Source: an uncultured Gammaproteobacteria bacterium
GTDB taxonomy: Bacteria > Pseudomonadota > Gammaproteobacteria > JACCXJ01
NCBI GenBank assembly: GCA_963764725.1
Contig: CAVXTM010000012.1
Span: forward strand, 192,001 to 256,000
Length of the DNA: 64,000 nucleotides
Direction of reading: 5' to 3'
Shown: positions 36,908 through 53,687 of the stretch, piece after piece
Numbering within the stretch: the first letter of the stretch is position 1
How the letters are laid out: each line of letters opens with the position of its first letter
The notes under the pieces: model-generated
What the model saw: only the letters and a program-made list of their open reading frames with translations
Told to the model about the DNA's origin: nothing
Databases searched by the model: none
Made by a program: the position numbers and the translations under genes

Positions 36908-37030
36908 TGATTCTGAATACCCCGCCGTTTACGGCGCGACACTTTAGCATTGGGGTTTCCAAAGGGAAGTAGTGCAACTCTCCTCTTTGATCAAGGGCGG
37001 GCTTCATACTCCGCCCGCGAAGTAAAATTT
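36908..37030 (-). repeat. Dispersed three-hairpin repeat, copy C
   Basis: Closely similar to copy D over about 120 bp. Confidence 0.9.
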
Positions 37031-37997
37031 ATATTGCGCCACGGGACGAATACGCGCTTACAGCACCGGGGATCCGCATACAGGCATCCACTACCGGTGC
37101 GGCGGGATTAAACCCCAGAGACTGCCGCAAACCCACGTACGCCTCTGTAAGGCGCGGATTGATCTCCATCACCATGGGACCCGACTCCGTGATCACTAGA
37201 TCGATCCCTATATAGCCCCGCAGCCCCGGCATCGCTTCCAGAATTCGGCTTACTAATTCCTCGAACTCATGCCGGCGATGCGCTAGCGCATTCACCGCCA
37301 CGCCAGAATATACGAGCCGGTGGTCGGTTATCTGTATTCGCTGCGCGTTGCATGCGAGTAAGCTATGCGATCCATCATAGCACAGCACGCTCAGACTGGC
37401 CGGGATCCCGGGTATATACGGCTGAACAACTAAGCCATGGGCCCACTTTCCGGAACTGATGACGTCCTCCGCGCGCCGGAAATAATAGGTTTCTTCACAC
37501 CCAGCGCCATCGTCCGGTTTGATTACCCAACCGCCATCGCTTGAGGGTAATTCCGTGTTCAGGTACATGGTGTCCGCCACCGGGACATGATGCCTCTTAA
37601 GCGCGCGCGCCGTGCGAAACTTGCTAGCCGTAACCTGGACCGCTCGGGGATGGCACCCGATCAAGATCCGGTTTTTATCGAGCACGCAGCGGTTCAAACG
37701 TTCTAAAACACCCCCCGTCTCGGGTGCGATCGGCCATACGGCATCGGCAGCCTCGATACATTGCTCCCAGCGCTCCCAAACCGATCGCTGAGGCAAAATG
37801 ACCCGCGTCTCGATGCCGGGATCCAAAGATGCGAGACGTGCGTCACGTGTGGTCGCTGTCTTGACCGTGGGGATCGCGCGGAGATCGTCGAGGAGTGCCC
37901 GTAACATTGCATCGCCCGCCGCGGCGAGCGCGACCGGAAGCGCCTCGCCCGCGAGCCCGCCGCCGGTAATATACTCGCACACGAAGATGCGCGGCAT
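37029..37997 (-). CDS. ATP-grasp protein Orf1 (MfnD-like tyramine-glutamate ligase)
   Basis: CEYITGGG, IAPETGGVL, IKPDDGAGC, GYIGIDL, EINPRLT. Confidence 0.85.
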   Translation of the reverse strand: MPRIFVCEYITGGGLAGEALPVALAAAGDAMLRALLDDLRAIPTVKTATTRDARLASLDPGIETRVILPQRSVWERWEQCIEAADAVWPIAPETGGVLERLNRCVLDKNRILIGCHPRAVQVTASKFRTARALKRHHVPVADTMYLNTELPSSDGGWVIKPDDGAGCEETYYFRRAEDVISSGKWAHGLVVQPYIPGIPASLSVLCYDGSHSLLACNAQRIQITDHRLVYSGVAVNALAHRRHEFEELVSRILEAMPGLRGYIGIDLVITESGPMVMEINPRLTEAYVGLRQSLGFNPAAPVVDACMRIPGAVSAYSSRGAI

Positions 37998-38002
37998 CTC
38001 GG

Positions 38003-38038
38003 AAAAAACATGCCCCGGTATTGACTACCGGGGCATGT
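38003..38038 (-). terminator. Intrinsic terminator/attenuator after fae
   Basis: Minus strand ACATGCCCCGGTA-GTCAA-TACCGGGGCATGT followed by a T-run. Confidence 0.75.
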
Positions 38039-38078
38039 CACACAATCAACGTCGTGTCGGGGAGACCACGACTACCCG

Positions 38079-38588
38079 TTACACGTGGTCAGCAAAGGGA
38101 TGTGCCGTATTCTTCTTGGCGACGACGTCCATCGCCTTCGGCAAACGCTTGACCGCACGTTCGATGGATTCCTTGGTCGCCTGGTAGTTGAAATCCTGGA
38201 TTTTCTTGTTGTCCTCGGCTTCCCAGTGAATGAACACGCCCACGCAGATAAAAATATCCTCCGCCTCGCTGGCGGGGATAATGCCGCTTTGGACCGAATC
38301 AACGACGGCCATGGCGACCGCGCGTTGCGCCGGACCGAACATCTGCACGGCCTGCTTAGCGCCCTTGATGGTGACCTTGTTAAAAAGGATGGTGTTGGGT
38401 TTACACGGCAAGTTTGGCGATACGACCGCCAGCAAGGTGCTGCACCCGTCCTTCTGGTTGGTCAAGGCATTGCAGAACGCGGCCTCGGCGGCGCTTCCCC
38501 GCGGTCCCATGATAAGATCGACGTGCGCGATCTCGTTGCCATCCCCGACTAAGGATTCCCCGACTAATACTCTGTCAACGACTGCCAT
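38079..38588 (-). CDS. fae: Formaldehyde-activating enzyme
   Basis: [46 protein letters not shown]; AGGAG RBS before ATG 38588. Confidence 0.96.
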
Positions 38589-38692
38589 AGTTTTAGCTCC
38601 TATTACTTCTCCAGTTGAAGTTTGTCCGACAAGTGTTCTGAAGATAGACATCGCTTGCCACCTTATTTATTACGGAAAAGGATCTCACCCCA

Positions 38693-40513
38693 TTACCGAG
38701 CTACTGCAGCCGCAACAGCCTGATCGCGATTGAGCCCCGCCAGGAGGTATTCTAAATGGAACGCCAGCAGGCTCGCCACGGTCAGATCGGCGCTGGTCCC
38801 GGGATTGAGCCCCTCCCGTTTTAAATTATTATCGAATTCCTGCAACAAAGGCATTGCATTGATTAAATTTTCGCACGCCTTGAACTGGGATTCCACTTCT
38901 TTTGCAATTCGACGCACTCCTTCGGCCCGTTCTGGTCCGTATTTGCGCTCGATATGGCTGTCCCGAAACGCCGCCAGAAAGTGTAAGTAACAGGCCACGG
39001 TCGCCCACCGCAGCGCCATCGCATCGTTGCACCCCGGCTTGATGTAGCGCTCGATACAGGGCACGCCGATGTTAAAAATCTCAATAAAATCGTTAGCGTA
39101 TTGGAAGGCGATCCTATCCCAGGCCTGAGCTTCGGCCATCGCTGCGCGCAAGCTAACAGTGGGATCGCTGCGCACATCGAAATGCTCACGCCGGCCAAGC
39201 CCCGCGGGCGCGGCCAGCGCGATTGCAGCAAAGACCCGACTTGTGTCACCGTGTGTCAGCGAGCGCAGTACTGCTTTGAGCCGCGGCCGCAGCCGCCCTT
39301 GCGGCGATTCCATGAGGACAGAATGCACCAGCGGCGCGCATAGCAGCACTATGCCGAGATTGGTGTTACATCCGACGGCCCGCTGCGTTGCTTCAATGCT
39401 ACGCAGGATGCGTTCGCCAACGCTAAAATCCTGCGCGCAGAGCAGCGGCGCCGCCGCTTCGGCGCTACGAATAAAATCGGCGGCGCTCATTCCGTGCCCG
39501 GGCGCCTGCACGCTGACGTTTCCCGGCTTCAACGCCTCGAGATCCAGCCGGCAGCTCCAGAGCCAAGCCTCGGCGACCGCGGGCGCGGCGATCCGGATCA
39601 TGATGAACGCACCCCATGGCGGGGCCGGACCGCGTCCATGCAGCGCCAGAAAATGGTCCACGAGCCGCTCGGCGATATCGAAGCTCGTGACGCCTTGCAG
39701 GCCCTGCCAGGCCGGAACGCTATTGACCTCGGTGACCAAGAAACGCCCGTCTCGGTCCTGCATCAAATCGACGCCGGCGTAATCGATGACCACCGCCCGC
39801 GCAGCCTCCTCGGCCAGCATGGCCAGCGGCGCATCGAGAGGGACGGCAAAGCAACGGCCCCCGCGCGCCCGATTGGTGATCCAGTGCGCGCTGCGGCGCT
39901 GCATCACCGCCACGGCGTGGCCATCGATCACCAACACCCGCCAATCGCGCCACGCGCCGTCGCGGCTGTCGATATATCGCTGGAGGTAATACACCTGGCC
40001 GAAGGCTTCCGGATCCGGTAAGGCCTCGGCGCGATCGACCAAGGTGACACCGACCCCTTGGGAGCCGAACAAGGGTTTCATCACCAGCGGCGTATTTCTC
40101 GCCAGCTCGCGTTCGACCAACGCGCGCGCTTCCGACTCGGCTTCGAGCACCCAGGTGTCCGGCGTCGGGATCCCGGCTCGGTTGAGCAAAAAACTGGTCA
40201 TCGCTTTGTCGACCGTACGCTCAATTGCGCGTCCATCGTTGTAAACCACGACTCCGAGCTCCCGCAAGGCATGGAGCAAATCAAGCCGCAGGATGACCTG
40301 TTCCAAGGTGCCTCCGGGGACACCGCGTATGAACACCCCCGCGGGCGGCTCACGTTCGAATCCGGGGATGACGACCGGCTTCGGACGGTTGAGATCGAAT
40401 CGGCATGCCGTCAAGGACACGGTGAGGCACTCGAAACCCCGCGCTTTGAGGGCGCGTTTCAATACCGCGCCGTGCCAACCGGGATCATCCGTGACAATAG
40501 CCACGCAGGGCAT
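38693..40513 (-). CDS. Single ORF joining Orf5 (RimK-like glutamate ligase) and Orf7 (CitG-like)
   Basis: N-half KPLFGSQG, GVDLM, EVNSVPAW; C-half KPGNV, NTNLG, DSHIERKYG, LNPGTSADL. Confidence 0.85.
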   Translation of the reverse strand: MPCVAIVTDDPGWHGAVLKRALKARGFECLTVSLTACRFDLNRPKPVVIPGFEREPPAGVFIRGVPGGTLEQVILRLDLLHALRELGVVVYNDGRAIERTVDKAMTSFLLNRAGIPTPDTWVLEAESEARALVERELARNTPLVMKPLFGSQGVGVTLVDRAEALPDPEAFGQVYYLQRYIDSRDGAWRDWRVLVIDGHAVAVMQRRSAHWITNRARGGRCFAVPLDAPLAMLAEEAARAVVIDYAGVDLMQDRDGRFLVTEVNSVPAWQGLQGVTSFDIAERLVDHFLALHGRGPAPPWGAFIMIRIAAPAVAEAWLWSCRLDLEALKPGNVSVQAPGHGMSAADFIRSAEAAAPLLCAQDFSVGERILRSIEATQRAVGCNTNLGIVLLCAPLVHSVLMESPQGRLRPRLKAVLRSLTHGDTSRVFAAIALAAPAGLGRREHFDVRSDPTVSLRAAMAEAQAWDRIAFQYANDFIEIFNIGVPCIERYIKPGCNDAMALRWATVACYLHFLAAFRDSHIERKYGPERAEGVRRIAKEVESQFKACENLINAMPLLQEFDNNLKREGLNPGTSADLTVASLLAFHLEYLLAGLNRDQAVAAAVAR

Positions 40514-40523
40514 AGGCTGGGAA

Positions 40524-41489
40524 CTAGGAAAATGACTGATCGAGCAAGGCTTCGTTGAATTTGCCGCCGTGGTAGGTCTTTCCGGTCCGGACCGAGCTTA
40601 TCGTGATCCGCGCCGGGCTGAACAGCCCCGGATCGATCGCGTAGAAATTATAATTGTAATCCTTAAATATCGCGGCAAAAGGTTTCCCGTAGTCACGCGA
40701 GGAACTGCTCGGCAGCTTGTGCGCCAGATCCTGCGCGTCGCCATCGCTACAGTCGACATAAAGCGTTACGTAACCTCCATACAGGATGGCATCGTTGGTG
40801 CGGCCCATCGCAGTGATTAGGTCTTTAGAGGGTGGACAGACCGGCGCCGTCGCCATGCCATCGACGATCGTGGACAGCGGGAAGCCAAGCGTGTGCACCC
40901 GATGCAACGACACCTCGAGGGAGCGCGCCACAACTTGCACCGCCCCGCATAGGCTCGTGGTCGGCGTGAGGATAAGGGTCAGGTCCTGAGGTTTGATGGC
41001 GCAGAAGTTCGCGACTTTCTCTGCGATTTCGACCGGAGGCCGTTCCTTGACCTCCAAGACCAAACAGGCCTGGTCGAAAGCGTCTCGATACCCGAGCTCT
41101 TGAAACAGGGGCTCGTGGCTGCCGATGGCCCGGGCCGGACCGGATCCCAACGCTTTAAAGGCACCCTTGCCCTCCCCGTATTCGAGGCTCCACCCCGCGT
41201 ATTGGCTCGCCAAGCAGGCCAGCACCGCGTTCGAGGTATACACATCAAGCTGCCACGGCGAATGCGGAAAGTCCCCCCCGGCGCGAATACTAACCCGCCC
41301 GAGGCCGCCCAGACAGATCTCGGCGATGCGCCGCCCGGCCTCGATCCCGCCCAAAACCGCGATTCCGGCGTCCACAACGACAGTCCCGTTCGTTAAGGAA
41401 TCCACCGCCAATCTCAGCGCCACGGCATCGGCGATCAGAGCTTGCACCAAAGGCTGCGCTAAAGCATTCACACTGGGTTGGTTATTCAT
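40524..41489 (-). CDS. mch: Methenyl-H4MPT cyclohydrolase
   Basis: CLASQYAGW, GSGPARA, MGRTNDAILYGG, PSSSSRDYGKPF, LFSPA; start at MNNQPSVN. Confidence 0.96.
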   Translation of the reverse strand: MNNQPSVNALAQPLVQALIADAVALRLAVDSLTNGTVVVDAGIAVLGGIEAGRRIAEICLGGLGRVSIRAGGDFPHSPWQLDVYTSNAVLACLASQYAGWSLEYGEGKGAFKALGSGPARAIGSHEPLFQELGYRDAFDQACLVLEVKERPPVEIAEKVANFCAIKPQDLTLILTPTTSLCGAVQVVARSLEVSLHRVHTLGFPLSTIVDGMATAPVCPPSKDLITAMGRTNDAILYGGYVTLYVDCSDGDAQDLAHKLPSSSSRDYGKPFAAIFKDYNYNFYAIDPGLFSPARITISSVRTGKTYHGGKFNEALLDQSFS

Positions 41490-41490
41490 C

Positions 41491-41614
41491 TTTATTCTGA
41501 ATACCCCGCCGTTTACGGCGGGCACTTTACCATTGGGGTTTCCAAAGGGGAGTAGTGCAACTCCCCCTTTGGTCAAGGGCGGGGATCATACTCCGCCCGC
41601 GAAGTAAAATTGAT
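41491..41614 (-). repeat. Dispersed three-hairpin repeat, copy D (abuts the mch start)
   Basis: TTTATTCTGAATACCCCGCCGTTTACGGCGGG...GGGGTTTCCAAAGGGGAGTAGTGCAACTCCCCCTTTGG...GGGCGGGGATCATACTCCGCCC...AAATTGAT. Confidence 0.9.
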
Positions 41615-41638
41615 TAATTTCACGCCATCGCCCGGTTT

Positions 41639-42736
41639 CTAGCCCGCTGTAAGCACCGCCAGCAACTTTTGACATCGGGTATCCAGGAACCGAGTCACAG
41701 CACCCGGTTCACACCCCGCTGCGTGCACCGTACAGATTGGCTCGCCCGCGCGCACGCGCGAACCCGCTGCCGGCCGATCACGGCTCCAGCGGGGCCATGG
41801 ATGCCGGATCTGCAGCGCATGCGGCGCGTAGAGAACCCGCACCGCGGCGATCTTGTTTTCTTGCGGGCCGGCCCGGGCCGGCAATCGCCCGCGGCAGGCG
41901 TCGACGTGGACTGTGAATAATCCGCCATCCCTCTCGTGCAATTCAAAGCTCGCGGTCGGACGCGGGTTGATCTCGAGGAGAGTCCAGCGCTCGTCATCAT
42001 CGACAATGAAATCCGCGCCGCAAAGACCGCGCAAACCAAACGCCGAGGTAAGCTCCGGGACGACCTGCGCCAGATCCTTACGCACTCGCGCGGGTAAACT
42101 TCGATCCGCGATTGCGCCGCGATGCGTGAACGTGCCAGGCTCCTGCCAGATCGCGTTATAGCCGACGATCGTCGCTCCGCGCCCGTTCGCCGCGAAGACC
42201 ACCGACTGTACCCGCCCGGCGACGGCGCGCTGTAAAAAATACCCCGGCGGACATTGGCGGTCCGCTCCTAAAGGCCGGACGTGCATGCCGCCTGAGCCGC
42301 CGATGCGCTTCCGTAACCACCCGCGCGAGTCGCCGGGGAGGCTCGAGCGTGTGTCTGGATGCGGGATCCCCAACCGCGACAAAGCGGCAAAAAAACTTGC
42401 AGGTTCTTTGACAGAACGGACAATCTCCGCCGCGTTACCGAGTAACTCCGCGCTCGCTGGCAGAGCGTCCAACAACGCTGGGTCCTGTTCGAAACCGCTG
42501 CCGGCGACCACGCCTGCGATGCGATCGCGTGCGCCCACCTTTTCGACCGCGGTGCATAAGGTCTCGCGATCGAAACCTTGGGGTCCCGGACGAACGCGCG
42601 CTGCGCTCCGCGCGAACGCATGCGTATCGCGATCGGCGAAGAGATCGACCACGTGCACCGCAGCACGGCTCCGCTGCGCGGACTGAGCGAGAGCGCGGCC
42701 CGATTGGCCGATGATGAGGTAGGCGGACTCAGCCAG
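41639..42736 (-). CDS. ATP-grasp protein OrfY (methanopterin/methylofuran biosynthesis), probable CTG start
   Basis: SGRALAQSA..., DLFADRDT, GSGFE, GGSGG, EINPRPTAS; the frame is open upstream to CTG at 42736 with GGGAGA 6 nt before it. Confidence 0.85.
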   Translation of the reverse strand: MAESAYLIIGQSGRALAQSAQRSRAAVHVVDLFADRDTHAFARSAARVRPGPQGFDRETLCTAVEKVGARDRIAGVVAGSGFEQDPALLDALPASAELLGNAAEIVRSVKEPASFFAALSRLGIPHPDTRSSLPGDSRGWLRKRIGGSGGMHVRPLGADRQCPPGYFLQRAVAGRVQSVVFAANGRGATIVGYNAIWQEPGTFTHRGAIADRSLPARVRKDLAQVVPELTSAFGLRGLCGADFIVDDDERWTLLEINPRPTASFELHERDGGLFTVHVDACRGRLPARAGPQENKIAAVRVLYAPHALQIRHPWPRWSRDRPAAGSRVRAGEPICTVHAAGCEPGAVTRFLDTRCQKLLAVLTAG

Positions 42737-43637
42737 CGGCGATCTCCCGGGCTATTTCAAAGGCCTTGATGTGATCCAGATACACGGGTTTCTCCGCCTG
42801 AATCATGAGTTGAAACAGGCGATAATGAACCTGGTATTTGACATTGCCGATCGCCAAGGCGCCGATGCCGAGGGCCTTGGCCGGAGTCGATTCAAGCACC
42901 TTACCCTTGTCATTAACGCCGACGCCCTCGATCCCGGCCGGGGGCACCGCGTTCACGTCGGCTGCCACCAGAAGCTCAGACGCGGTCCCGAGTTGATCGC
43001 GCGACAGCACTTGAAATCCGGCCTTGGCGGCGCCGACGACCACATGGGCCCGCGGTAGGAACGCGCGTATGGACGCGTCATTGCTGCTGTCGGCGCCCTG
43101 AAGTTTGACACCGTAACGTTCGTTGTAGGGCGCCGCCGCCTTCACGGCGGCGTCGGCACCCCGCTGGCTCGCGAGAAACATATTGGCGCCGCTGTTCGAT
43201 CCCAATATTCCCGCGCATACACCGACGGGTCCCGTCCCGCCGAAGACATAGACGTTGGCGCCGGACAATCCCTGCGCGCGGCCTTTCTTCTTAAGCGCCG
43301 TTTCCACGCAGGCCATGAGCGCCGCGGCCGTAGTGATCGCCCCGCTCGGATCGGCGAATACAGAAACCTCGAAAGGAGGCACCATGGCCTTTTTCGCCTC
43401 CTCCAACATATCGATCGCGAGCCCGAAGTCGCGGCCCCCGAGAAAGATACCGGTCCGCTTCACGCCGGTGGGGCTGCGAGAAAATATCGTGTCTTGGGTC
43501 AACGCGTAGATATCCTCCAGGGCAACGTTGGTATAGGGGATCACACCGTTGAACTCTGCCTCATAGGCCATATTGACGTCGAACGGGCTCACGTTCTTCG
43601 TCGGGTTGAACATGTGTAATAAATAGGGGTCTTTCAT
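42729..43637 (-). CDS. mtdB: NAD(P)-dependent methylene-H4MPT dehydrogenase
   Basis: SPFDVNMAY, QDTIFSR, VPPFEVSVFADPSGA, DVNAVPPAGI, GALAIGNVKY. Confidence 0.93.
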   Translation of the reverse strand: MKDPYLLHMFNPTKNVSPFDVNMAYEAEFNGVIPYTNVALEDIYALTQDTIFSRSPTGVKRTGIFLGGRDFGLAIDMLEEAKKAMVPPFEVSVFADPSGAITTAAALMACVETALKKKGRAQGLSGANVYVFGGTGPVGVCAGILGSNSGANMFLASQRGADAAVKAAAPYNERYGVKLQGADSSNDASIRAFLPRAHVVVGAAKAGFQVLSRDQLGTASELLVAADVNAVPPAGIEGVGVNDKGKVLESTPAKALGIGALAIGNVKYQVHYRLFQLMIQAEKPVYLDHIKAFEIAREIAAG

Positions 43638-43711
43638 TTTACCGTCCGTTTATTTTTAATGAATTCCGCTGCGGGCTTATGGTCGCGGCCTGCGCTACTT
43701 CGGTCTTGAAA

Positions 43712-44725
43712 TTACGCGGCCTTTCTACGCACGCCGATCTCGGCGCCGCTATTGCGCCCGCCGCAGACCGAGAAGCCTAAGGGTGCTCCCCACTGCTGGG
43801 TCGCCCGTTGCCATAGGCCGTGCGCGCGAGAAGCGCTGTCGACGAGCGCAAATCCGGTCGGGCCCCAGGAACTTTGTCCCACCCCTCGCAGGCCCTCGTC
43901 CTGCAACCAGCGCAACACCTCCGCAACTCGCGGACTGCTATAACGGCCGCCCTGGTAGGGGGCGAAATAGTCACCGACTGCCTCTTGAATCGCGGTGATT
44001 CCGGCGCCGAAGGCCTCGAAGTCATGCTCGGCCAAGGCCGGTAGGACCTGCATCAAAAGCACTCGGCAAAGATGCGCCGATACCTGCGTGGCCATTGGCG
44101 GCATCTGTTTAAACGCCGCGGCCTCCTCGCTGCCGTTCAACCCTGTCCGGGCTTGGTCGGAAATGAGCAGGATTCGCCATGGCGGCGGAAACGCGACCTG
44201 ACACAGCACCGGCGGCACCACCGTCGCACGTCCGCGACCGCCGTCGACCAAAAATCCGCCGCTCTCGAACGCAGCCAGGCCGATCCCCGAGCGCACTCCC
44301 CGCTCCGCGAGCTTCGCAAGCTGACAAAGATCGCTATCGAGATCGAACAGGCGTACGAACGCAGCGCAGATCGCCAACGCCAATTGGGTTCCCGAACCGA
44401 GACCCACGTGCTCCGGGATCGCCTCCTCGATAGCAATCGACACCCCGCTCTTCAAGCCCAAGGTCCGCAGCAGCATCCGCGCGCACTGCTCCGCGCGCCC
44501 GCTCGATGGACCGTTAGCATGGACGCCCGGCGAGCGCGTGACGCTCAGGCGTGTCTGGATACCGCTCAAGGTCAACCCGAGCCCCCCGAACCGCCGTCCG
44601 AGATCGCCGCTCATGTCGATAAAGCCCAAGTGTAAGCGCGCCGGCGCGGTGACGGTGACGGTCAGGCCATCGTACTGAGCGCCGAGCGCTTGCTCCGGTA
44701 GCGGCGTTGCGGAAGGGTCAGGCAT
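43712..44725 (-). CDS. mptG: Beta-ribofuranosylaminobenzene 5'-phosphate synthase (GHMP fold)
   Basis: PARLHLGF, HVGLGSGTQ, RSGIG..AF..GGFLVDGG, GQSSWGPTGF. Confidence 0.93.
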   Translation of the reverse strand: MPDPSATPLPEQALGAQYDGLTVTVTAPARLHLGFIDMSGDLGRRFGGLGLTLSGIQTRLSVTRSPGVHANGPSSGRAEQCARMLLRTLGLKSGVSIAIEEAIPEHVGLGSGTQLALAICAAFVRLFDLDSDLCQLAKLAERGVRSGIGLAAFESGGFLVDGGRGRATVVPPVLCQVAFPPPWRILLISDQARTGLNGSEEAAAFKQMPPMATQVSAHLCRVLLMQVLPALAEHDFEAFGAGITAIQEAVGDYFAPYQGGRYSSPRVAEVLRWLQDEGLRGVGQSSWGPTGFALVDSASRAHGLWQRATQQWGAPLGFSVCGGRNSGAEIGVRRKAA

Positions 44726-44927: not shown

Positions 44928-45284
44928 ATGGCCGAAATGATGATCCTGGTCCCGGGGCGGACCAACAAACAGGGCACGTCATTAAACGCGGGCAAGCTCA
45001 AGAAAGAGTACCGGGACGTGACCTCCACGGTGGAAATGAACACCGATGACATGGCGCGGCTCGGCATAAAAGAGGGTGACGCCGTGCGCTTAGCCACGGA
45101 CATCGGCGAGACCGTCGTGCGCTGCAAGGGACGCAAACCCACCGACCTTCCCGCGGGCATGTTGTTTATCCCCTATGGCCCGCCGAGCTCTCAGCTCATG
45201 GGCGGCGATACCGCGGGGAGCGGTATGCCTTTGTCCAAGAATTTCGAGGTCAGTGTGGAACTTGTCGAAGGCCCCGTCGCTTGA
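44928..45284 (+). CDS. fwdD: Formylmethanofuran dehydrogenase subunit D-like (molybdopterin dinucleotide-binding)
   Basis: GRT.KQG...GK...Y......EMN..DM..LG..EGD.V, FIPYGP, T..SGMP.SK. Confidence 0.88.
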   Translation: MAEMMILVPGRTNKQGTSLNAGKLKKEYRDVTSTVEMNTDDMARLGIKEGDAVRLATDIGETVVRCKGRKPTDLPAGMLFIPYGPPSSQLMGGDTAGSGMPLSKNFEVSVELVEGPVA

Positions 45285-45362
45285 TCGAGCCGGCCATTTT
45301 ATTCCGGCGAATTCCGGCGCCGATTAAACGATCACACAGCATAGGATTTCCGAGGTAAAAAT

Positions 45363-46700
45363 ATGAGTGACAATATTCGGACAGTGGAGCATGCCACCTG
45401 CACCTTTTGCGGTTGCGTGTGCGACGACATGGACCTGACAGTCGATGTGGATGCGAAGCGCATCACCAAGGCTAAGAACGCGTGCACGCTTGGACGCGCC
45501 TGGTTCGCGGAGCATACTATCGAAGACCGTCCGTTCGCCTTAATCGACGGCAAAGCCACCACCACCGAGGAGGCGGTCGAGGCCGCCGCGCACATCCTCG
45601 TCGCGGCGCGGCTGCCGATCATCTACGGCTTGAGCGACACCACCTGCGAGGCCCAGCGCCAAGCGGTGGCGATCTGCGATCTCATGCACGGCAATATCGA
45701 CACCACCACCTCGGTCTGCCACGGTCCCTCCGGCATCGCGTTCCAAGGCGTCGGCGAAAGCACGGCGACACTGGGTGAAATCAAGAACCGCGCGGATTTG
45801 GTCGTCTACTGGGGCGGTAACCCCGCGGAATCGCATCCGCGCCACTTCACCCGCTACGCGGTCACCCCCAAGGGACGGTATATCCCCAATGGCAGGAAAG
45901 ACCGCTACGTGGTCTTGGTCGATGTGCGGCGCACACCGAGTGCGCCGGTGGCGGACCTCTTCATCCAAATCAAGCCAGGACATGACTTCGAGCTTTTGTG
46001 GGCCCTGCGTGCGTTTGTCAAAGGCCGCAAGGTCGATCCGAACCTGGCCGAGCGCACGGGCGTGCCCCTGGCGACCATGGAGAATCTAGTACAGCGGATG
46101 AAGAGTTGCCGCTACGGGGTCTTGTTCTTCGGCATGGGGCTGACGATGACCCGCGGGCGCCATTTCAACTCCGGCGCCGTGCTGGCGCTCGCTACGGACC
46201 TGAATGAATTTACCCATTTCGTGGCCAAGCCCGTACGCGGCCACGGCAATGTCACCGGGGCCGACAACGTCGTCTCCTGGCAAACCGGCTATCCGTTCGG
46301 GGTCAACTTCAGCCGCGGTTACCCGCGCTTCAATCCCGGCGAGTACACGACCGTCGATCTGCTCACCCGCGGCGACGCGGATGCGGCCATGATCATCGCG
46401 AGCGATCCGGCGTCCAATTTTCCGCGCCCGGCCATCGAGCACATGAAGCGCATCCCGGTGATCGCCTTGGACACCAAACCGACCGATACCACCCAGTTGG
46501 CCAAGGTCGCCTTCACCACTTCGACCTATGGCATCAATACCTCGGGGACGGTATATCGCATGGACGATGTGCCGCTTACCTTGCGCCCGGCCTTTGAGTC
46601 GCCTTATCCGAGCGACGAAGAGGTGCTCACCGCGATCAAGAACCGGGTGCGCGAGTTGCTGACTGAGAAACGCGCGCGGTTCTACGCAAAGGTGGCTTAG
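45363..46700 (+). CDS. fwdB: Formylmethanofuran dehydrogenase subunit B (FwdB/FmdB type; FhcB homologue)
   Basis: CTFCGCVCDD...NAC, TSVCHGPS, TLGEIKNRAD, WGGNPAESHPRH, RGHGNVTG, YRMDDVP. Confidence 0.93.
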   Translation: MSDNIRTVEHATCTFCGCVCDDMDLTVDVDAKRITKAKNACTLGRAWFAEHTIEDRPFALIDGKATTTEEAVEAAAHILVAARLPIIYGLSDTTCEAQRQAVAICDLMHGNIDTTTSVCHGPSGIAFQGVGESTATLGEIKNRADLVVYWGGNPAESHPRHFTRYAVTPKGRYIPNGRKDRYVVLVDVRRTPSAPVADLFIQIKPGHDFELLWALRAFVKGRKVDPNLAERTGVPLATMENLVQRMKSCRYGVLFFGMGLTMTRGRHFNSGAVLALATDLNEFTHFVAKPVRGHGNVTGADNVVSWQTGYPFGVNFSRGYPRFNPGEYTTVDLLTRGDADAAMIIASDPASNFPRPAIEHMKRIPVIALDTKPTDTTQLAKVAFTTSTYGINTSGTVYRMDDVPLTLRPAFESPYPSDEEVLTAIKNRVRELLTEKRARFYAKVA

Positions 46701-46714
46701 GCAACCAAGCACCG

Positions 46715-48355
46715 ATGCTACGCATATCGAATGGCCGGATCTACGATCCGGCCAACGGAGTGAACGGCGCGATCCGGGATATCTGCATCAACGCGGGAAA
46801 GATCGTCGCAGACGTCCCCGCGGCCGCGAAACGCATGGACGCGCAAGGCATGGTGATCATGCCGGGGGGCATCGACATCCATTGTCATATCGCCGGACCC
46901 AAGGTCAATCTCGCGCGCAAGCTTCAGCCCGAGGACCACCGACTCGACGTGCATCCCGGCACGGCGTTCACCCGCTCGGGCACCGGGGGCGTGGTGCCTT
47001 CTACTTTTGCCACCGGCTACCGTTACGCGGCGCTCGGGTACACCACGGCGATGGAGGCCGCGGTCACCCCCATCGGCGCCCGTCACGTACTGGAGGAATT
47101 TCACGACATCCCCGTCATCGACAAGGGGTTCTATGTGCTCCTCGGGAACAACGTTTTCTTGTACGATTTGCTTAAAGCCGGGCGGCGCGAGGACTTTCGC
47201 CAAGCGGTGGCCTGGTGGGTCAATGCGACCAAGGCGTATGCGGTTAAGTTGGTCAACCCGGGGAGCGATGAGCTTTGGAAGGGACACCGCAACGCGAACA
47301 TTACCAGCGTAAACGAGAAAATCGACAACTTCGATCTCACGCCGCTCGGCGTGATCAAGGCGTTTATCGAGACCGTCGACGATCTCGGTCTTCCCCACCC
47401 TCCGCATATTCATTGCAACAACCTGGGCCGCAGCGGCAACTATACGACTACCCTCGAGACCATGCGGGCCGCCGAGGGACGGCGGGTGCACATCGCGCAC
47501 GTACAGTTCCATAGCTACGGCGGGGAACCCGGGAAAAACCCGACCTCGAAAGGTCCCGAGATTGCCGATTACATCAACAAACATCCGAATATTACCGCCG
47601 ATGTCGGCCAGGTCATGTTCGGGAAGGCCACGGCGATGACCGCCGACGCGCCCCTCGGCTACTTGTTGCGCGGAATCAGCGGCAACAAATGGATAAACGC
47701 CGATACCGAGTGTGAGAGCGGGTGCGGGATCGTACCCTTCACCTATCACGAAAAAGCCTACATGCACGCGCTGCAGTGGGCGATCGGACTGGAGCTGTTC
47801 CTGTTATCCGAGGATCCGTGGCGGATTGTTTTATCGACCGACCATCCCAATGGCGGCTCCTTCATGATGTACCCGCGTTTGATCCGGCTGCTCATGGATC
47901 GCGATTTTCGCAACCAAGAGATCCGGAAAGTGAATCAAAAGGCGATTCGCAATACCGTGCTGGCCGACAAGCTCGACCGGGAGTATACCCTGGAGGAGAT
48001 CGCGATCATCACCCGAGCCGGTCCCGCGCGCGCGCTTGGGCTGAAAGACAAGGGGCACCTCGGCGTCGGGGCAGACGCCGACATCACCATTTACGACGAG
48101 CACGACGACAAGGAGCGCATGTTCAGCACGCCGCGCTACGTGATCAAGGACGGCGTCGCGGTCATCGAAGACCACGAATTCCGCTGCGACCACGAGGGGC
48201 GTGTCCTGCATACGGCGCCCGCGTACGATGCCGCGATCGAAAACAGCATTAAACCATTCTTCGAGGATAACTATAGTATTGTTTTTGAGAACTACGCGGT
48301 CACGGACCGGTATCTGCACCACCATCAGGTGATACCGACGGTCCTCGAACGATAA
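46715..48355 (+). CDS. fwdA: Formylmethanofuran dehydrogenase subunit A / FhcA amidohydrolase
   Basis: GGIDIHCHIAG, VKLVNPG, HIHCNNLG, HVQFHSYG, STDHPNGG. Confidence 0.94.
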   Translation: MLRISNGRIYDPANGVNGAIRDICINAGKIVADVPAAAKRMDAQGMVIMPGGIDIHCHIAGPKVNLARKLQPEDHRLDVHPGTAFTRSGTGGVVPSTFATGYRYAALGYTTAMEAAVTPIGARHVLEEFHDIPVIDKGFYVLLGNNVFLYDLLKAGRREDFRQAVAWWVNATKAYAVKLVNPGSDELWKGHRNANITSVNEKIDNFDLTPLGVIKAFIETVDDLGLPHPPHIHCNNLGRSGNYTTTLETMRAAEGRRVHIAHVQFHSYGGEPGKNPTSKGPEIADYINKHPNITADVGQVMFGKATAMTADAPLGYLLRGISGNKWINADTECESGCGIVPFTYHEKAYMHALQWAIGLELFLLSEDPWRIVLSTDHPNGGSFMMYPRLIRLLMDRDFRNQEIRKVNQKAIRNTVLADKLDREYTLEEIAIITRAGPARALGLKDKGHLGVGADADITIYDEHDDKERMFSTPRYVIKDGVAVIEDHEFRCDHEGRVLHTAPAYDAAIENSIKPFFEDNYSIVFENYAVTDRYLHHHQVIPTVLER

Positions 48356-48378
48356 GAATTAGAATTAAATCCTTCTGC

Positions 48379-49272
48379 ATGCATATTCAATCCACCGAGG
48401 TCATCGATACCTTCGCGGAGGCTTTTGCCATGTGGGGCGCACGGGTGATCATCACCGCGGCCAGCCCCGCGTGGGCCCTCGCCGCCGCACGCTCGATGAC
48501 CGGATTCGCGACATCGGTGATCGGCTGTAAATGCGAGGCCGGGATCGAGCGGGAGCTGGCCGCCGAGGAAACGCCCGACGCACGCCCCGGGATCAGCGTG
48601 TTGCTGTTTTCGACCAGTTTGGAGGGGGCCGGCAAACGGCTCCTCGAGCGGATCGGCCAGTGCGTGATGACCTGCCCGAGCACTTCGTGTTTCAACGGTC
48701 TCGCCTCGGGCGAGAGCGTGAGCGTCGGCGGCAAGCTCCGCTACTTCGGCGACGGCTATCAGATCGGCAAGTCCCTGGACGGGCGTCGCTATTGGCGCAT
48801 TCCGGTGATGGATGGCGAATTCGTGGTCGAAGACCGCTTCAATATCCAGCCGGCGGTGGGCGGCGGGAATCTTCTAATCCACGGCCTGGATCAAACCCGG
48901 ACTTTGGAAACCGCCGAGGCCGCGGCCAGCGCGATGCGTGCCGTTCCCGGCGTGATTCTGCCGTTTCCGAATGGTGTCGTGCGCAGTGGCAGCAAGGTCG
49001 GATCGCGGTACAAGGGCTTGCCGGCCTCCACCAACGATGCTTACTGTCCAACCTTGCGGGCGTTTTCCGCGGCAACCGAAGTCCCGGCCGAGGCCGCTTG
49101 CGTGTTGGAAATCGTGATCGATGGGCTCGAACTGCGGGGGGTCCAAGACGCTATGCGCGTTGGCATCAACGCGGCTTCCGGGAACGGCGCCTTGCGGATC
49201 TCTGCCGGAAACTACGGCGGGGACCTCGGCCAGTACCGGATCGGTCTGTACGACCTTCTTCAAGCGACCTGA
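48379..49272 (+). CDS. ftr: Formylmethanofuran:H4MPT formyltransferase (Ftr/FhcD)
   Basis: DTFAEAF, GFATSVIGCKCEAGIE, RSGSKVGS, SAGNYGG. Confidence 0.95.
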   Translation: MHIQSTEVIDTFAEAFAMWGARVIITAASPAWALAAARSMTGFATSVIGCKCEAGIERELAAEETPDARPGISVLLFSTSLEGAGKRLLERIGQCVMTCPSTSCFNGLASGESVSVGGKLRYFGDGYQIGKSLDGRRYWRIPVMDGEFVVEDRFNIQPAVGGGNLLIHGLDQTRTLETAEAAASAMRAVPGVILPFPNGVVRSGSKVGSRYKGLPASTNDAYCPTLRAFSAATEVPAEAACVLEIVIDGLELRGVQDAMRVGINAASGNGALRISAGNYGGDLGQYRIGLYDLLQAT

Positions 49273-49285
49273 ACGACTCGCTACG

Positions 49286-50104
49286 ATGAGCCTCAAGCTC
49301 GTGCTCAAGCACGAACCGGAAGTCCCACTAGAAGCCGAGGTCATCACGCCAGCGAAGCTCAACGGTTTGAGTATCGGTGAGATCACGAAGCTTCCGCTGC
49401 AATACGGGAACGAACGCATCGAGCTGGGCGAGTTTTTTCGCGTCGAGGGTAGCTATAGCGGTGAAATCCGCGTGGAAGGTGATCTTGCGCGCGTCAAGCT
49501 GGTCGGCGCGGGGATGAGCGAAGGCCGGATCGTGATACATGGTCGCATCGGGATGCATCTCGGCGCCGGGATTTCGGGCGGGGAGATCCTTGTCGAAGGC
49601 GACGCCGGCGATTGGGTCGCGCCCGAGATGTCCGGAGGCCGGATCGTCATCAAGGGCAATGCCGGGCACATGATCGGCAGCGCCTATCGGGGAAGTCCGG
49701 CCGGCATTCGCGGCGGGGAAATCATCATCCACGGCAATGCCGGCAACGAGATCGGTCACGCCATGCGCAAAGGTCTGATCGCGATCGGCGGAGACTCCGG
49801 CGACTTTACCGGGGTCGACATGCTCGCGGGAACCATCATCGTGATCGGCGATCTCGGCAACCGCACGGGGGCGGGGATGAAACGCGGTTCCATCGTCTCG
49901 ATGCGGCCCGCGCAGATGCTGCCGACCTTCAGCTATGCGTGCAGCTATCAGCCGCAGTTCCTGCGCCTGTACCTATTGCATTTGTCACGGCTGGGCTTGC
50001 CGGTCACGCCGGCTTATCTCAATGGCCATTACCAACGCTGGAGCGGGGATGCCCTCGAGATGAACCGCGGCGAGGTGTTGCTGCTCAGCGGCGAGGCCGC
50101 GTAG
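49286..50104 (+). CDS. fwdC: Formylmethanofuran dehydrogenase subunit C / FhcC
   Basis: Beta-helix repeats G.GM..G.I.I.G.AG; start at MSLKLVLK. Confidence 0.93.
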   Translation: MSLKLVLKHEPEVPLEAEVITPAKLNGLSIGEITKLPLQYGNERIELGEFFRVEGSYSGEIRVEGDLARVKLVGAGMSEGRIVIHGRIGMHLGAGISGGEILVEGDAGDWVAPEMSGGRIVIKGNAGHMIGSAYRGSPAGIRGGEIIIHGNAGNEIGHAMRKGLIAIGGDSGDFTGVDMLAGTIIVIGDLGNRTGAGMKRGSIVSMRPAQMLPTFSYACSYQPQFLRLYLLHLSRLGLPVTPAYLNGHYQRWSGDALEMNRGEVLLLSGEAA

Positions 50105-50180
50105 ATCGGCGATGCGCGCCTGAGCAAGTACTCCAAGCCGAAACAATAAACCACTTTCACTGCGTCGCGAGGAGATCCAC

Positions 50181-50486
50181 ATGACCACGATCGTAACCGA
50201 AAATTGCCTCCGGTGCCGCTTCACCGATTGCGTCACGGTCTGCCCGGTGAACTGCTTCCATGGGGACGATGACATGCTGTATATCGACCCCGAGGTCTGC
50301 ATCGACTGTAGCGCCTGCGTACCCGAGTGTCCGGTACATGCCATCCATGAGGGAGAAGACATTCCCGACAACCTGAAACACTGGACAGAGATCAACGCCG
50401 AACGCGCCCCGAACTTACCCGTGATCGAAAGCAAACAAGATCCGCTGCCCACGGCCGAGGCGCGCCGAGCGGAGTTAGGATATTGA
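50181..50486 (+). CDS. FdxA-like (7Fe type) ferredoxin
   Basis: ENCLRCRFTDCVTVCPVNCF...IDPEVCIDCSACVPECPVHAI, the Azotobacter FdI pattern; GAGGAG RBS. Confidence 0.93.
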   Translation: MTTIVTENCLRCRFTDCVTVCPVNCFHGDDDMLYIDPEVCIDCSACVPECPVHAIHEGEDIPDNLKHWTEINAERAPNLPVIESKQDPLPTAEARRAELGY

Positions 50487-50519
50487 TAGAAGTATATTGC
50501 GCGTGCGCAGAGACTGTAG

Positions 50520-51896
50520 ATGAATACCGTAGGAACTCCTGAAAACCCATTGCAGGTTGCCGTCGTCGGCAGCGGCCCGAGCGGCTTCTACGCCGCCGAA
50601 GCCCTGATCAAGTCCGGGCGCGCCGTGCGCGTGGACATGTTCGAGCGGCTCGCCTCGCCCTTCGGGCTCGTACGCAGCGGCGTCGCGCCCGATCACCCCA
50701 AGCTCAAACAAGCCATCCTCGTCTACGACAAGATCGCGCGCTCGCCCGAGTTTTCATTTTTCGGCAATATCAACGTGGGCAAGGACATCACGCTCGGCGA
50801 GCTGCGCCAGAACTATCACGCGATCCTATTCACCTGCGGGGCGGAAACGGACCGGCGGCTGGGGATCCCGGGCGAGGATCTCGGCGGCAGCCATACTGCC
50901 ACCGAATTCGTCGGCTGGTACAACGGTCATCCCGATTATCGCGACCGGGTGTTTGATCTATCGCACGAGGTCGCGGTCATCATCGGCCAGGGTAACGTGG
51001 CCGCGGATGTTTGCCGCATCCTGGCCAAAACGGCGGACGAGTTAAAACATACCGATATCTCGGAGCACGCGCTTGATACGCTGGCCGAGAGCAAAGTGCG
51101 GGAAATCCATGCAATCGGACGCCGCGGACCGGCGCAAGCGAAATTCACCAGTCGCGAATTGCGCGAGTTCGGTGAGCTTGGCGATTGCGATCCCTTCGTC
51201 GACGCGCTGGAGTTAACGCTGAATCCGGAAAGCGAGGCCGAGCTCGTCGACAAGAACAACATGGTCAGCGCTAAGAATGTCGAGATCTTCCGTGATTTCG
51301 CCCGGCGCACGCCGGGTAAGCACCGCCGCTGTATTTTCCAGTTCCTGCGCAGTCCCGTGCGGCTCGAAGGCGCGGGGCGGCTTGAACGCGTGGTGCTGGA
51401 ACGCAATCGGCTACAAGGGGCGCCGTTTCAGCAGTCGGCACGGAGCACGGGGGAGATCAGCACGCTCGAGTGCGGGATCTTGTTCCGCAGCATCGGCTAT
51501 AAAGGGGTGGCCGTTTCCGAGGTGCCCTTCGACGAGCGCAACGGCGTGATCACCAACCGCGCCGGGCGCGTGCTCGATAGTGACGGCAGTGTCGTTTCCG
51601 GTCTTTATTGCGCGGGATGGATTAAGCGCGGTCCGACCGGGATCATCGGGACCAATCGCGCTTGCAGCGTGGAGACCGTCGGTTCGCTGCTTGCGGATCT
51701 AGACGCACTCGCGACACCGGGCGCAAAAAGCGGGACGCATGGTATCCGAGCGCTCATCGAGGAGCGCGGTTTGCGCGCGGTCAACTACGACGGTTGGCTG
51801 AAGCTAGACGCCGCCGAAGTGGAGCGCGGTAAACCCAAGGGAAAACCGCGCGAAAAATTCACCCGGCTGCATGAAATGCTGGCGCTGCTCGGATGA
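50520..51896 (+). CDS. Ferredoxin-NADP+ reductase, FprA/adrenodoxin-reductase type
   Basis: GSGPSGFY, FGLVRSGVAPDH, FVGWYNGHP, IGQGNVAAD, GWIKRGPTGIIGTN. Confidence 0.93.
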   Translation: MNTVGTPENPLQVAVVGSGPSGFYAAEALIKSGRAVRVDMFERLASPFGLVRSGVAPDHPKLKQAILVYDKIARSPEFSFFGNINVGKDITLGELRQNYHAILFTCGAETDRRLGIPGEDLGGSHTATEFVGWYNGHPDYRDRVFDLSHEVAVIIGQGNVAADVCRILAKTADELKHTDISEHALDTLAESKVREIHAIGRRGPAQAKFTSRELREFGELGDCDPFVDALELTLNPESEAELVDKNNMVSAKNVEIFRDFARRTPGKHRRCIFQFLRSPVRLEGAGRLERVVLERNRLQGAPFQQSARSTGEISTLECGILFRSIGYKGVAVSEVPFDERNGVITNRAGRVLDSDGSVVSGLYCAGWIKRGPTGIIGTNRACSVETVGSLLADLDALATPGAKSGTHGIRALIEERGLRAVNYDGWLKLDAAEVERGKPKGKPREKFTRLHEMLALLG

Positions 51897-52414
51897 AGCT
51901 CGCGCAGAGCGGAGTTCGCGATCGCCTTCTGCGCCGCCAGCGCATGCCCCAGCTAGCTTAGGGTACGCTGTGCGCACGCGGATTATTCGTCCGGTTCGCC
52001 GTAACCGCCTTCGGTTCGTGGCAGCCCGGCACCTGCCCAATCCTGTAGATACAGACCGGTCCGAACATAACGATGAAACGTTGACTACCGCCAATCACGG
52101 ACCTCGGCCGGAGGCGCGCCAAGTTAGCCGCCCCCACCCTATGTGCTGAAGCGCACAGACGTGGAATTCAGCAAGCACTATTCTGCGTTGAGAAAGCGTC
52201 AACCTTATGGAAGCTAAAAGCCCTTCCCCGCGTACCGGCTCGGCTATGCCCAGAGGCGCCCGGTGACGGGTATAACCTGTTTCTGCAAACGGAGCGGTTT
52301 TGTGTTGGAATTTTATTGGGCCAGGCTCGTGTTGTCCGGTTCCGGCGTTATGCATGGGCCTTGTGCAGGCGGGAAAGTCATTGCTCAACTGCAGACCACG
52401 CAAAGAGTACTACT

Positions 52415-53687
52415 ATGTTTAGCGGAACACTGAATTTCTCTATGTGGGGGATTGTTGGCGTGGGATTGATCCTGACCCACATTACCATTGCAAGCGTTAC
52501 CATCTATCTGCATCGTCACCAGGCCCACAAAGCCCTGGACCTGCATCCCCTCGCCAGCCACTTTTTTCGCTTTTGGCTCTGGCTCACCACCGGCATGATC
52601 ACGAAGGAATGGGTGGCGGTGCATCGCAAGCATCACGCGAAATGCGACATCGAGGGCGATCCTCATAGTCCCCAGGTATTTGGCCTTCGCAAAGTGTTGC
52701 TGGAAGGCGCGGAGCTTTACGGCAAAGAAAAGGACGATAGACAAACGATCGAGAAGTATGGCAAGGGCACCCCGGAGGACTGGGTTGAGCGCCATCTCTA
52801 CAGCCGGTTTCATCATCTCGGTCTTGGCCTTCTGCTTCCGATAGAGATCATACTGTTCGGCCCACTCGGCCTCTCGCTGTGGGCGATACAAATGCTTTGG
52901 ATACCCTTCTGGGCAGCCGGCGTGATCAACGGCCTAGGCCACACTTGGGGCTACCGTAGCTATGAAACACCGGATGCCTCTACCAATATCGCCCCTATCG
53001 GCCTATTGATTGGCGGAGAGGAATTCCATAATAATCACCACGCCTATCCTTGGTCCGCCCGGCTGTCGACCCAGTGGTGGGAATTAGATATCGGTTGGCT
53101 TTATATACGTCTCCTCGCGATGTGCAAGCTGGCGCGGGTCAAGAGGCAGGCGCCCAAGCCAGCAATCGAGTGGGGCAAACTTGTGGCTAATCGGGAAACC
53201 CTGCGAGCCGTGGTCCAAAACCGCTTTCATGTGATGGCACTCTATGGCCGCAGAGTCGTGCTGCCGGCCCTGCGCCTGGAGTCGAAACGTGCGGATGCAG
53301 CCACACGCAAATTGCTCAGGGAAGTTAAGCCACAGATTATGCGAGCCTATGTGCGTGCCGACGAGGGTGCGCGTCTGGCCTTAAGCAGTGCGTTAGCCGC
53401 GAATTCAACTCCGGCCACGGTTTCTCATTTTGGCTCTTCAGCAGAATCTGTGGGTCATTTTCAGACCTCGCGATGGCAAATACCCCGTGGACTTGTGGAT
53501 AACGTCCCTGTTAACCACACGGTCTCAGAGTGAAGCTGTCGGTATGTGGTCCAACGCACGACTCAGCCGAGAGACACAACTGGACACTCTGCACGAATGG
53601 TGTCGAAGAGCCGAAGCCACCGGCATAGAGGGCTTAAAGATATTCGCAGGCGGGTTGCGCGGTTATTCGATGGTCCAAAGAGGATAA
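52415..53687 (+). pseudogene. Second delta-9 desaturase; catalytic part intact, C-terminal region frameshifted near 53430
   Basis: Three His boxes; the C-terminal WCRRAEATGI..L..F...LRGY lies in another frame and follows a 96-bp insert. Confidence 0.85.

Follow-up and report, generated by a model that had tools for sequence, protein, structure and literature searches.

A run of seven genes resembling an archaeal formylmethanofuran dehydrogenase (Fwd) operon lies on the + strand at positions 44928-51896 of a 64,000-nt stretch of DNA from an uncultured gammaproteobacterium (contig CAVXTM010000012.1). The whole stretch is referred to here as the window, and coordinates are window positions unless a contig is named. 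Open reading frames (ORFs) and family scans place genes for the Fwd subunits D, B and A, a formyltransferase, the C subunit, a ferredoxin and an FprA-type reductase in close succession, which confirms the run described in an initial annotation of this DNA. The seven genes are as follows.

44928-45284, + strand: fwdD, molybdopterin-dinucleotide-binding 'cap' subunit, 118 aa from ATG (PF01568)
45363-46700, + strand: fwdB, catalytic subunit with a predicted Mo/W-bis-pyranopterin guanine dinucleotide (bisPGD) centre and an N-terminal [4Fe-4S] motif, 445 aa (TIGR03129)
46715-48355, + strand: fwdA, amidohydrolase subunit interconverting formyl-methanofuran with formate and methanofuran, 546 aa (TIGR03121)
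48379-49272, + strand: ftr, formylmethanofuran:tetrahydromethanopterin (H4MPT) formyltransferase, between A and C (PF01913, PF02741, TIGR03119)
49292-50104, + strand: fwdC, beta-helix subunit, 270 aa (TIGR03122)
50181-50486, + strand: fdxA, 7Fe ([3Fe-4S]+[4Fe-4S]) ferredoxin of the Azotobacter FdI type, 101 aa (NF045490)
50520-51896, + strand: fprA-type NADPH:ferredoxin reductase of the adrenodoxin-reductase family, 458 aa (phmmer against PDB)

The family matches of all seven genes are far beyond chance, and the identical gene order is seen again in relatives. Successive intergenic gaps in the operon of the window measure 78, 14, 23, 19, 76 and 33 nt. Two start sites required a choice: the longest fwdD ORF begins with TTG at 44922, while the alignment of relatives starts at the ATG at 44928, and that of fwdC starts at 49121, inside ftr, while the family match and the relatives favour the ATG at 49292. 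No terminator-like site was seen between fwdC and fprA in a scan of the window, and a promoter scan returned 4 sites against 2.4 ± 1.7 expected, which is no better than chance. The seven genes are predicted to form a single transcript.

FwdB scores 507 bits against TIGR03129 (cut-off 328), and its translation carries the motifs C13-x2-C16-x3-C20, N-A-C41 and S-V-C119-H120-G-P-S (nt 45711-45731). The initial annotation had named these residues and placed the SVCHGPS motif correctly; its coordinates for R292-G-H-G-N-V-T-G were one base off, the motif lying at nt 46236-46259. In phmmer searches of PDB, the best matches are archaeal FwdB chains (8rja_B, 3.2e-115; 9sfi_Q, 3.2e-111; 5t5i_B, 2.5e-108), whereas FhcB of the Methylorubrum extorquens formyltransferase/hydrolase complex (Fhc; 6s6y_B) is matched with an E-value of 2.2e-17 only. 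The comparison of the B subunit with FwdB and FhcB that had been proposed with the annotation thus places it, by phmmer scores, far nearer archaeal FwdB. In the HMMER alignments, the FwdB motifs coincide with the same motifs of 8rja_B and 5t5i_B; the column of the catalytic Cys reads x in the alignment to 9sfi_Q. The key residues given for Methanothermobacter wolfeii FwdB in the available text of its description are Cys118, His119 and Arg288 (PMC6926001). Among the nearest FwdB relatives outside the cassette, one of the 10 clusters looked up is from Pirellulales.

The D subunit that the annotation had reported, the counterpart of the fourth domain of formate dehydrogenases, is supported by PF01568 (49 bits, 6.6e-13) and by matches to the FwdD chains 2ki8_A (1.6e-17), 5t5i_D (1.1e-15) and 8rja_D (1.2e-15). 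Its score against NF042908, an archaeal exception-level model of FwdD, is 85 bits, below the cut-off of 175. The fwdD gene stands immediately upstream of fwdB in 78 of 80 public loci. Taken together, the window holds a TIGR03129 B subunit with its cluster motif, the Cys-His pair and the Arg, as well as FwdD, FwdA and FwdC, all of which are features of the Fwd/Fmd family; FwdF and FwdG were not found among the window ORFs of at least 90 aa, to which the search was confined and in which fdxA is the sole gene of ferredoxin type. Fhc complexes are marked by a B subunit without pterin and cluster motifs and by the lack of a D gene, whereas the B subunit of the window keeps these motifs and is preceded by a D gene. 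FwdB and FwdD are predicted to bind a Mo- or W-bisPGD cofactor.

Many related genomes carry a second, FhcB-like copy of the B subunit, and this copy provides an internal comparison for the first. The alignment covered 96 Fwd-type B sequences, of which 84 are distinct, and 37 second copies from the same genomes, 36 of them distinct. Residues C13, C16, C20, C41, C119, H120, R292 and G293-N296 are invariant in the Fwd-type sequences (96/96). In the second copies, the catalytic Cys is retained in 0/37, the His in 0/37 and the Arg in 2/37, and the N-terminal cysteines are retained in 34-37 of 37. Where both copies are present (33 loci), the Fwd-type B sequences are 78% identical to one another (pairwise median) and the second copies 40%; the Fwd-type B is the more conserved of the two in 527 of 528 pairs, the loci compared including kin that are not independent of one another. 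These patterns suggest that the catalytic residues of the Fwd-type B are under selection, unlike those of the scaffold copies in the same genomes, and this counts in favour of an active centre.

In a search of 40 relatives, two sets of genes were present in all eight sampled genomes of the same genus and in five of six from the same family; in the sixth, G014, which is 76% complete, there was a single match. One set of each two-set genome is the orthologue of the window cassette. The other is arranged B-A-ftr-C, with no D gene and no ferredoxin or reductase gene, and its B subunit is ~30% identical to window FwdB. The queries for the second set rest partly on genomes flagged as unpublished (G001, G002, G005, G007, G008, G009, G010, G012 and G014), as do the two-set counts and the 41-genome counts given below. 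The two sets stand in tandem in many other genomes, as seen in public loci. In many genomes a canonical fhcB-A-D-C follows directly after fprA, so that the whole reads as one block (for example, L045:11859-16498 and L069:16756-21400), and the fhcB copies in such blocks keep four N-terminal cysteines that are absent from M. extorquens FhcB.

The remaining subunits combine traits of Fwd and Fhc. FwdA (TIGR03121, 697 bits; cut-off 393) is closest to archaeal chains, with 492 bits for 8rja_A (2e-146) and 483 bits for 5t5i_A, compared with 371 bits for FhcA (6s6y_A). Ftr (TIGR03119, 405 bits) has its best PDB match in FhcD (6s6y_D, 323 bits), ahead of Methanopyrus kandleri Ftr (1ftr_A, 296 bits). 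FwdC (TIGR03122, 267 bits, above the cut-off) aligns to FhcC including the C-terminal part, whereas matches to archaeal FwdC end near residue 220. An AlphaFold2 model of FwdC (predicted local distance difference test score, pLDDT, 94.8) places helices at 222-233 and 240-244. Its TM-score is highest against FhcC (6s6y_C, 0.91; root-mean-square deviation, rmsd, 2.0) and lower against 5t5i_C (0.83; rmsd 3.4), the Foldseek E-values being similar. In M. extorquens, the available text describes an FhcC helix-loop-helix at 216-246 as the platform for FhcD, with a beta-hairpin in its place in archaeal FwdC, and the B-A-ftr-C order of the window is the fhcBADC order (PMC6926001). The window operon therefore has two Fhc features, an ftr gene inside the operon and a C subunit whose C-terminal helix-loop-helix is a predicted platform. 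Ftr is probably docked on the Fhc-like FwdC.

The last two genes of the operon would provide an electron-transfer module. The best PDB matches of FdxA are Azotobacter vinelandii ferredoxin I chains (~2e-28), which align over residues 4-93 with every FdI cysteine in register, and a DUF3470 tail is present. Its score against NF045490, the FdxA_Protbact equivalog model, is 118 bits; falling below the cut-off of 135 is expected of a specialised paralogue. Matches to FwdF chains (5t5i_F, 9sw6_H) span only ~22 residues, and FdxA is not a homologue of FwdG. The same genome has another FdxA-like gene (C11:325679), 48% identical to the one in the operon, and the operon FdxA is taken, from this comparison, as a dedicated paralogue, with the C11 copy serving housekeeping. 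The reductase matches M. tuberculosis FprA (1lqt_A, 2.2e-108, residues 10-455) and bovine adrenodoxin reductase (1cjc_A, 1.1e-106), and its N-terminus carries the Pfam domains NAD_binding_8 and Pyr_redox_2, an FAD-binding fold. Its gene is present in a single copy in the genome.

The linkage of fwdC, fdxA and fprA, for which the annotation had called for a survey of genomes, holds in close relatives and well beyond them. The fdxA-fprA pair stands downstream of fwdC in 11/11 assessable loci of close relatives, 7 of them from genomes flagged as unpublished; a further five loci end at a contig edge and lie outside the 11. FwdB has close relatives in at least 587 species-level public genomes. The best 80 of these (74-97% FwdB identity, all metagenome-assembled genomes) are labelled Gamma-, Alpha- and Betaproteobacteria, Gemmatimonadota, Chloroflexota and Planctomycetota, and 48 of their loci could be assessed, the other 32 of the 80 not being judgeable. 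The pair adjoins the fwd genes in 44/48, comprising 34 loci with the pair after fwdC, nine with it directly before fwdD (by script) and L099, also before fwdD (by eye). The same linkage as in the unpublished set is thus found independently, and it outlasts a rearrangement that places fdxA-fprA ahead of fwdD. The two sets overlap: for 10 of the 16 Fwd-type loci of the G genomes, and for one second-copy locus, identical sequences occur in the public set. Median gaps are 53 nt between fwdC and fdxA and 55 nt between fdxA and fprA (n=41 loci). In Chloroflexota loci, an ORF between fwdD and fwdB was considered as a small ferredoxin gene and rejected; it encodes 68 aa without a Pfam match.

Trees of FwdB and FprA were built for 41 loci and the window by a quick IQ-TREE search, with support from the Shimodaira-Hasegawa-like approximate likelihood ratio test (SH-aLRT). 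They share their deepest split (SH-aLRT 100 in both), and in both the 'upstream' arrangement, with fdxA-fprA before fwdD, falls on one side of a branch (SH-aLRT 88 and 96). Both also group the window family with Alpha- and Betaproteobacteria and Gemmatimonadota, apart from 26 other Gammaproteobacteria. From this shared placement, it appears that the fdxA-fprA module travelled with the fwd genes, between phyla too. Correspondingly, FprA occurs in 17 of the 18 sampled genomes with a Fwd-type FwdB and in none of the 23 without one; these 41 genomes span about six genus-level lineages, and the single miss is a 75%-complete genome in which the locus meets a contig end.

The host genome (4.21 Mb, 19 contigs, 96.9% complete) contains four matches to the ammonia monooxygenase (AMO) family (pmoA), spread over three loci; two of the matches are pieces that lie side by side on contig C3. 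The nearest named FwdB homologue, at 97%, belongs to 'Chromatiales bacterium USCg_Taylor'. On this genomic evidence, the host is identified as an upland-soil-cluster-gamma methanotroph, a soil methane oxidiser; this lineage is credited with atmospheric methane uptake. Genes for cofactor supply score above their cut-offs (MobA, 239 bits; MoaA, 378 bits; ModA, 194 bits), so the bisPGD biosynthesis genes, whose absence the annotation had named as grounds for rejecting its proposal, are present. The genome has just one further MopB gene, narG (C11:154114-156268). It reads as at least two ORFs beside a whole narH, and is either a pseudogene or the product of a frameshift in the assembly; in the former case, MobA would serve no intact bisPGD enzyme other than FwdB. 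Further methanofuran/methanopterin genes, MfnB-like and dihydropteroate-synthase-like, lie beside narGH on C11 (L138:981-1778 and 2303-3739), at a distance from the main C1 cluster.

A second Fhc set was not found in this genome with the TIGR03129 and TIGR03121 profiles or by tblastn with the second set of a relative; a single B subunit and a single A subunit were found. The flank of the second set of relative G008 maps to the interior of contig C5, and the set itself is not there. Formate can be handled by a formate-tetrahydrofolate ligase (FtfL, 887 bits) and by a metal-free NAD-dependent formate dehydrogenase at 19344-20546 (NF005750, 716 bits), ~25 kb from the fwd operon. The gene for the latter is adjoined by that of a LysR-type regulator (18295-19212).

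Taken together, gene content and conservation make it reasonably probable that the operon codes for a bacterial formyl-methanofuran dehydrogenase that is redox-active, is coupled to a formyltransferase and has an electron outlet of its own, leading to NADP+. In the proposed mechanism, Ftr would transfer the formyl group from formyl-H4MPT to methanofuran or methylofuran, and FwdA would hydrolyse formyl-methanofuran to formate within the complex. The enclosed formate would then be oxidised to CO2 by FwdB/FwdD at a Mo- or W-bisPGD centre with Cys119 as ligand. Two electrons would leave FwdB by its N-terminal [4Fe-4S] cluster, reach the 7Fe ferredoxin FdxA and pass from there through the FprA-type flavoprotein to NADP+. 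The net reaction would be formyl-H4MPT + NADP+ + H2O -> CO2 + H4MPT + NADPH, with no free formate. The oxidative direction, the role of FdxA as direct acceptor and the operation of FprA towards NADP+ are presumed. The potentials are ~ -530 mV for CO2/formyl-methanofuran and ~ -320 mV for NADP+/NADPH, so oxidation towards NADP+ would be downhill.

Several observations weigh against this proposal. Archaeal Fwd enzymes are oxygen-sensitive, whereas the hosts are aerobes, and known pairs of FprA and 7Fe ferredoxin run from NADPH to ferredoxin, opposite to the proposed sense. The operon has no gene for a bridging subunit like FwdG. The N-terminal Cys motif alone is no proof of redox function, because the second copies keep these cysteines too, and recent lateral spread, not constraint alone, may account in part for the high identity of the cassette across phyla. 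An adjacent fdxA-fprA pair is absent from four of the 48 assessable public loci (two Chloroflexota and two Gemmatimonadota), and no ferredoxin gene was found nearby in the one Chloroflexota locus that was read gene by gene. Finally, because FtfL and the NAD-dependent formate dehydrogenase are present and no Fhc was found, free formate seems to be a metabolite of this organism, and the complex may release formate.

The direction in which known FprA/7Fe-ferredoxin pairs run is also the first argument for an alternative in which CO2 is formed, and reduced FdxA is the product that matters. FdxA would then feed other low-potential reactions, with FprA merely balancing the ferredoxin and NADPH pools or running from NADPH to ferredoxin. 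Two further points would suit this scheme: FdxA is small, free-standing and of the soluble FdI type, and the four loci noted above lack the adjacent module. However, FprA co-travels with the cassette across phyla and occurs in the sampled genomes only with it, which fits a dedicated outlet better, and a separate FdxA paralogue is available for housekeeping. The alternative is considered unlikely.

The genes for formate metabolism bear on a second alternative, in which FwdB/FwdD would act mainly on free formate, as a formate:ferredoxin/NADP+ oxidoreductase, or in which the complex would be a branch point from which formate escapes when acceptors are reduced and at which it is burnt when they are oxidised. 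With FtfL and the NAD-dependent formate dehydrogenase present and no Fhc found, formate must arise somewhere, which speaks for such a role, and most relatives carry a formate-releasing Fhc set beside the cassette. Against it, a coupled reaction is favoured by the conservation of FwdA and Ftr together with the B/D module, and the solved archaeal Fwd passes formate through an internal tunnel between A and B, according to the available text (PMC6926001). This second alternative seems decidedly unlikely.

The reverse reaction is a very improbable third possibility, in which electrons would flow from NADPH through FprA and FdxA to FwdBD and CO2 would be reduced to formyl-methanofuran as a reductive entry of C1 units. 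FprA normally accepts electrons from NADPH. Archaeal Fwd is described, in the available text of one report, as reversible, with nearly identical oxidative and reductive active sites (PMC11493965). However, the methane- or methanol-oxidising hosts make formyl-H4MPT in bulk, with pmoA present and fae, mtdB and mch next door. Starting from NADPH, the step would also be uphill by ~200 mV, and no coupling device is encoded. The suggestion in the initial annotation that the complex might run in reverse is hence unlikely on redox potentials. Scarcely credible is the idea of a second Fhc-like hydrolase with B as a scaffold and fdxA-fprA serving another client, such as the desaturase gene desA (52316-53533): desA begins 420 nt 3' of fprA in the window, and DesA-family desaturases use ferredoxin-type donors, yet it adjoins fprA in this genome only and in no scanned locus of a relative, FwdD is retained, and the catalytic residues, lost from the true scaffold copies of the same genomes, do not vary in the Fwd-type B.

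A broader version of the preferred reading, a coupled dehydrogenase with its own outlet to NADP+, can be put forward tentatively and is held to be possible rather than probable. The cassette would be a living intermediate between archaeal Fwd and bacterial Fhc in which the archaeal metal-pterin dehydrogenase was retained, Ftr was recruited to an Fhc-like C subunit and the polyferredoxin was swapped for FdxA and FprA, converting formyl-H4MPT to CO2 with formation of NADPH. It would have spread between phyla as a seven-gene unit and would act in this host as the sole exit of the H4MPT route and as a redox-gated branch point, with formate going to assimilation and CO2 and NADPH formed for energy.

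Upstream of the operon, a divergent block of H4MPT/methanofuran genes occupies 37029-44725 on the - strand, and the same neighbours are found in the loci of relatives. Its genes, assigned with Pfam/NCBIfam, are listed in order from the operon outwards.

43712-44725, - strand: RFAP synthase
42729-43637, - strand: mtdB
41639-42658, - strand: ATP-grasp gene
40524-41576, - strand: mch
38693-40513, - strand: mptN-citG fusion
38079-38651, - strand: fae
37029-37997, - strand: mfnD-like gene

A ~120-bp repeat with internal palindromes is found in this region at ~41494-41616 and ~36910-37029, and again at ~29363-29423; it gives 43 blastn rows in the genome, including the query's own site. It looks like an element of the repetitive extragenic palindromic (REP) or miniature inverted-repeat transposable element (MITE) type. 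The copy situated between mch and the ATP-grasp gene takes in the first ~30 codons of the longest ORF for mch, so the true mch start is probably further in.

Other parts of the window show irregularities. A gene for a PIG3-type quinone oxidoreductase (10391-11229) is split into two ORFs (130 and 143 aa) and is probably broken. In a 364-aa ORF at 12870-13964, a transketolase match is confined to the first 143 residues, and the G+C content of 12001-14000 is 70.6% against ~60% around it. DesA-family desaturase genes lie at 20810-21586 and 52316-53533, the first covering model positions 1-247 of 385, and an IS200/IS605 transposase gene lies at 17417-17842. The two desaturase genes and the transposase hint at local rearrangement.

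In the textbook account, the bacterial H4MPT route ends in the Fhc hydrolase with release of formate, and a separate formate dehydrogenase then makes CO2. If the proposed mechanism is correct, methanotrophs and methylotrophs would have a different balance of electrons and NADPH, and flux models that treat formate as an obligatory branch point would change. In a lineage credited with consuming atmospheric methane, each reducing equivalent counts. The cassette is common, given the at least 587 species-level genomes with close relatives of FwdB. The evolutionary account of the passage from Fwd to Fhc, as given in the available text of the M. extorquens work, would change as well (PMC6926001).

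Bacterial genes of this kind have been reported before. The available portions of the literature describe fmdD-B-A-C with a selenocysteine-containing B subunit in planctomycete P2, a Lake Washington fosmid and Candidatus Methylomirabilis oxyfera (PMC4807772), and fwdDBA-ftr-fwdC with Cys118 and the cluster domain in Hakuba Actinobacteria (PMC7325909), in agreement with the initial annotation, which had mentioned fwdD from some other bacteria. One source counts 149 bacterial FwdB homologues in its available text (PMC10100899), and the corresponding part of another notes no bacterial representatives yet (PMC7331816). A 2016 opinion article, as far as its text was available, holds that a fwdD homologue is absent from Planctomycetes and Proteobacteria (PMC5020050); the window cassette contradicts this for Proteobacteria. 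The reported operons share the core of the present one, including a Cys- or Sec-containing B subunit, and were noted, from genomes, as possibly active. They differ in that they are known from genes alone and that the available text mentions no linked ferredoxin or FprA-type reductase. A published link of bacterial Fwd to a ferredoxin/FprA module was not found in the literature searched, most subscription journals lying outside that search. From the text available, bacterial fwdD/B operons are thus already known in gene lists, and the fdx-fpr module was not found in print.

Compared with FwdABCDFG of M. wolfeii (5T5I), the window system has A, B, C and D in common, with the cluster cysteines, the Cys-His pair and the Arg aligned. 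It differs in the lack of FwdF and FwdG genes in the operon, the embedded ftr, the Fhc-like C-terminus of FwdC, the aerobic host and the presumed oxidative direction. The Fwd of Candidatus Ethanoperedens thermophilum (8RJA) is the best solved match of both FwdB and FwdA. According to the available text of its description, that enzyme is F420-reducing and CO2-generating, another acceptor module takes the place of the polyferredoxin FwdF, and its authors conclude that the electron partner sets the direction (PMC11493965). The module there is a bound F420-reductase subunit, FwdI, reached by way of FwdG, whereas the window encodes a separate 7Fe ferredoxin and an FAD enzyme, with NADP+ as the presumed acceptor.

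M. extorquens FhcABCD (6S6Y) resembles the window system in the B-A-ftr-C order, in FhcD as the nearest relative of Ftr, in FhcC as the nearest match of the FwdC model and in the H4MPT neighbourhood. Its FhcB has Ser in place of the catalytic Cys118 and is without His119, Arg288 and the N-terminal [4Fe-4S] domain, and the FwdD cap is absent, as stated in the available text (PMC6926001), which agrees with what the initial annotation had said of Fhc, namely no D subunit, a cofactor-less FhcB and release of formate. The window B subunit keeps every feature that was lost in M. extorquens FhcB, and it is Fhc, not the window system as proposed, that releases formate. Both proteins of the electron module have full-length homologues in M. 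tuberculosis FprA (1LQT) and A. vinelandii ferredoxin I. These serve other acceptors, whereas the window pair appears as a dedicated paralogue set that is co-inherited with the fwd genes.

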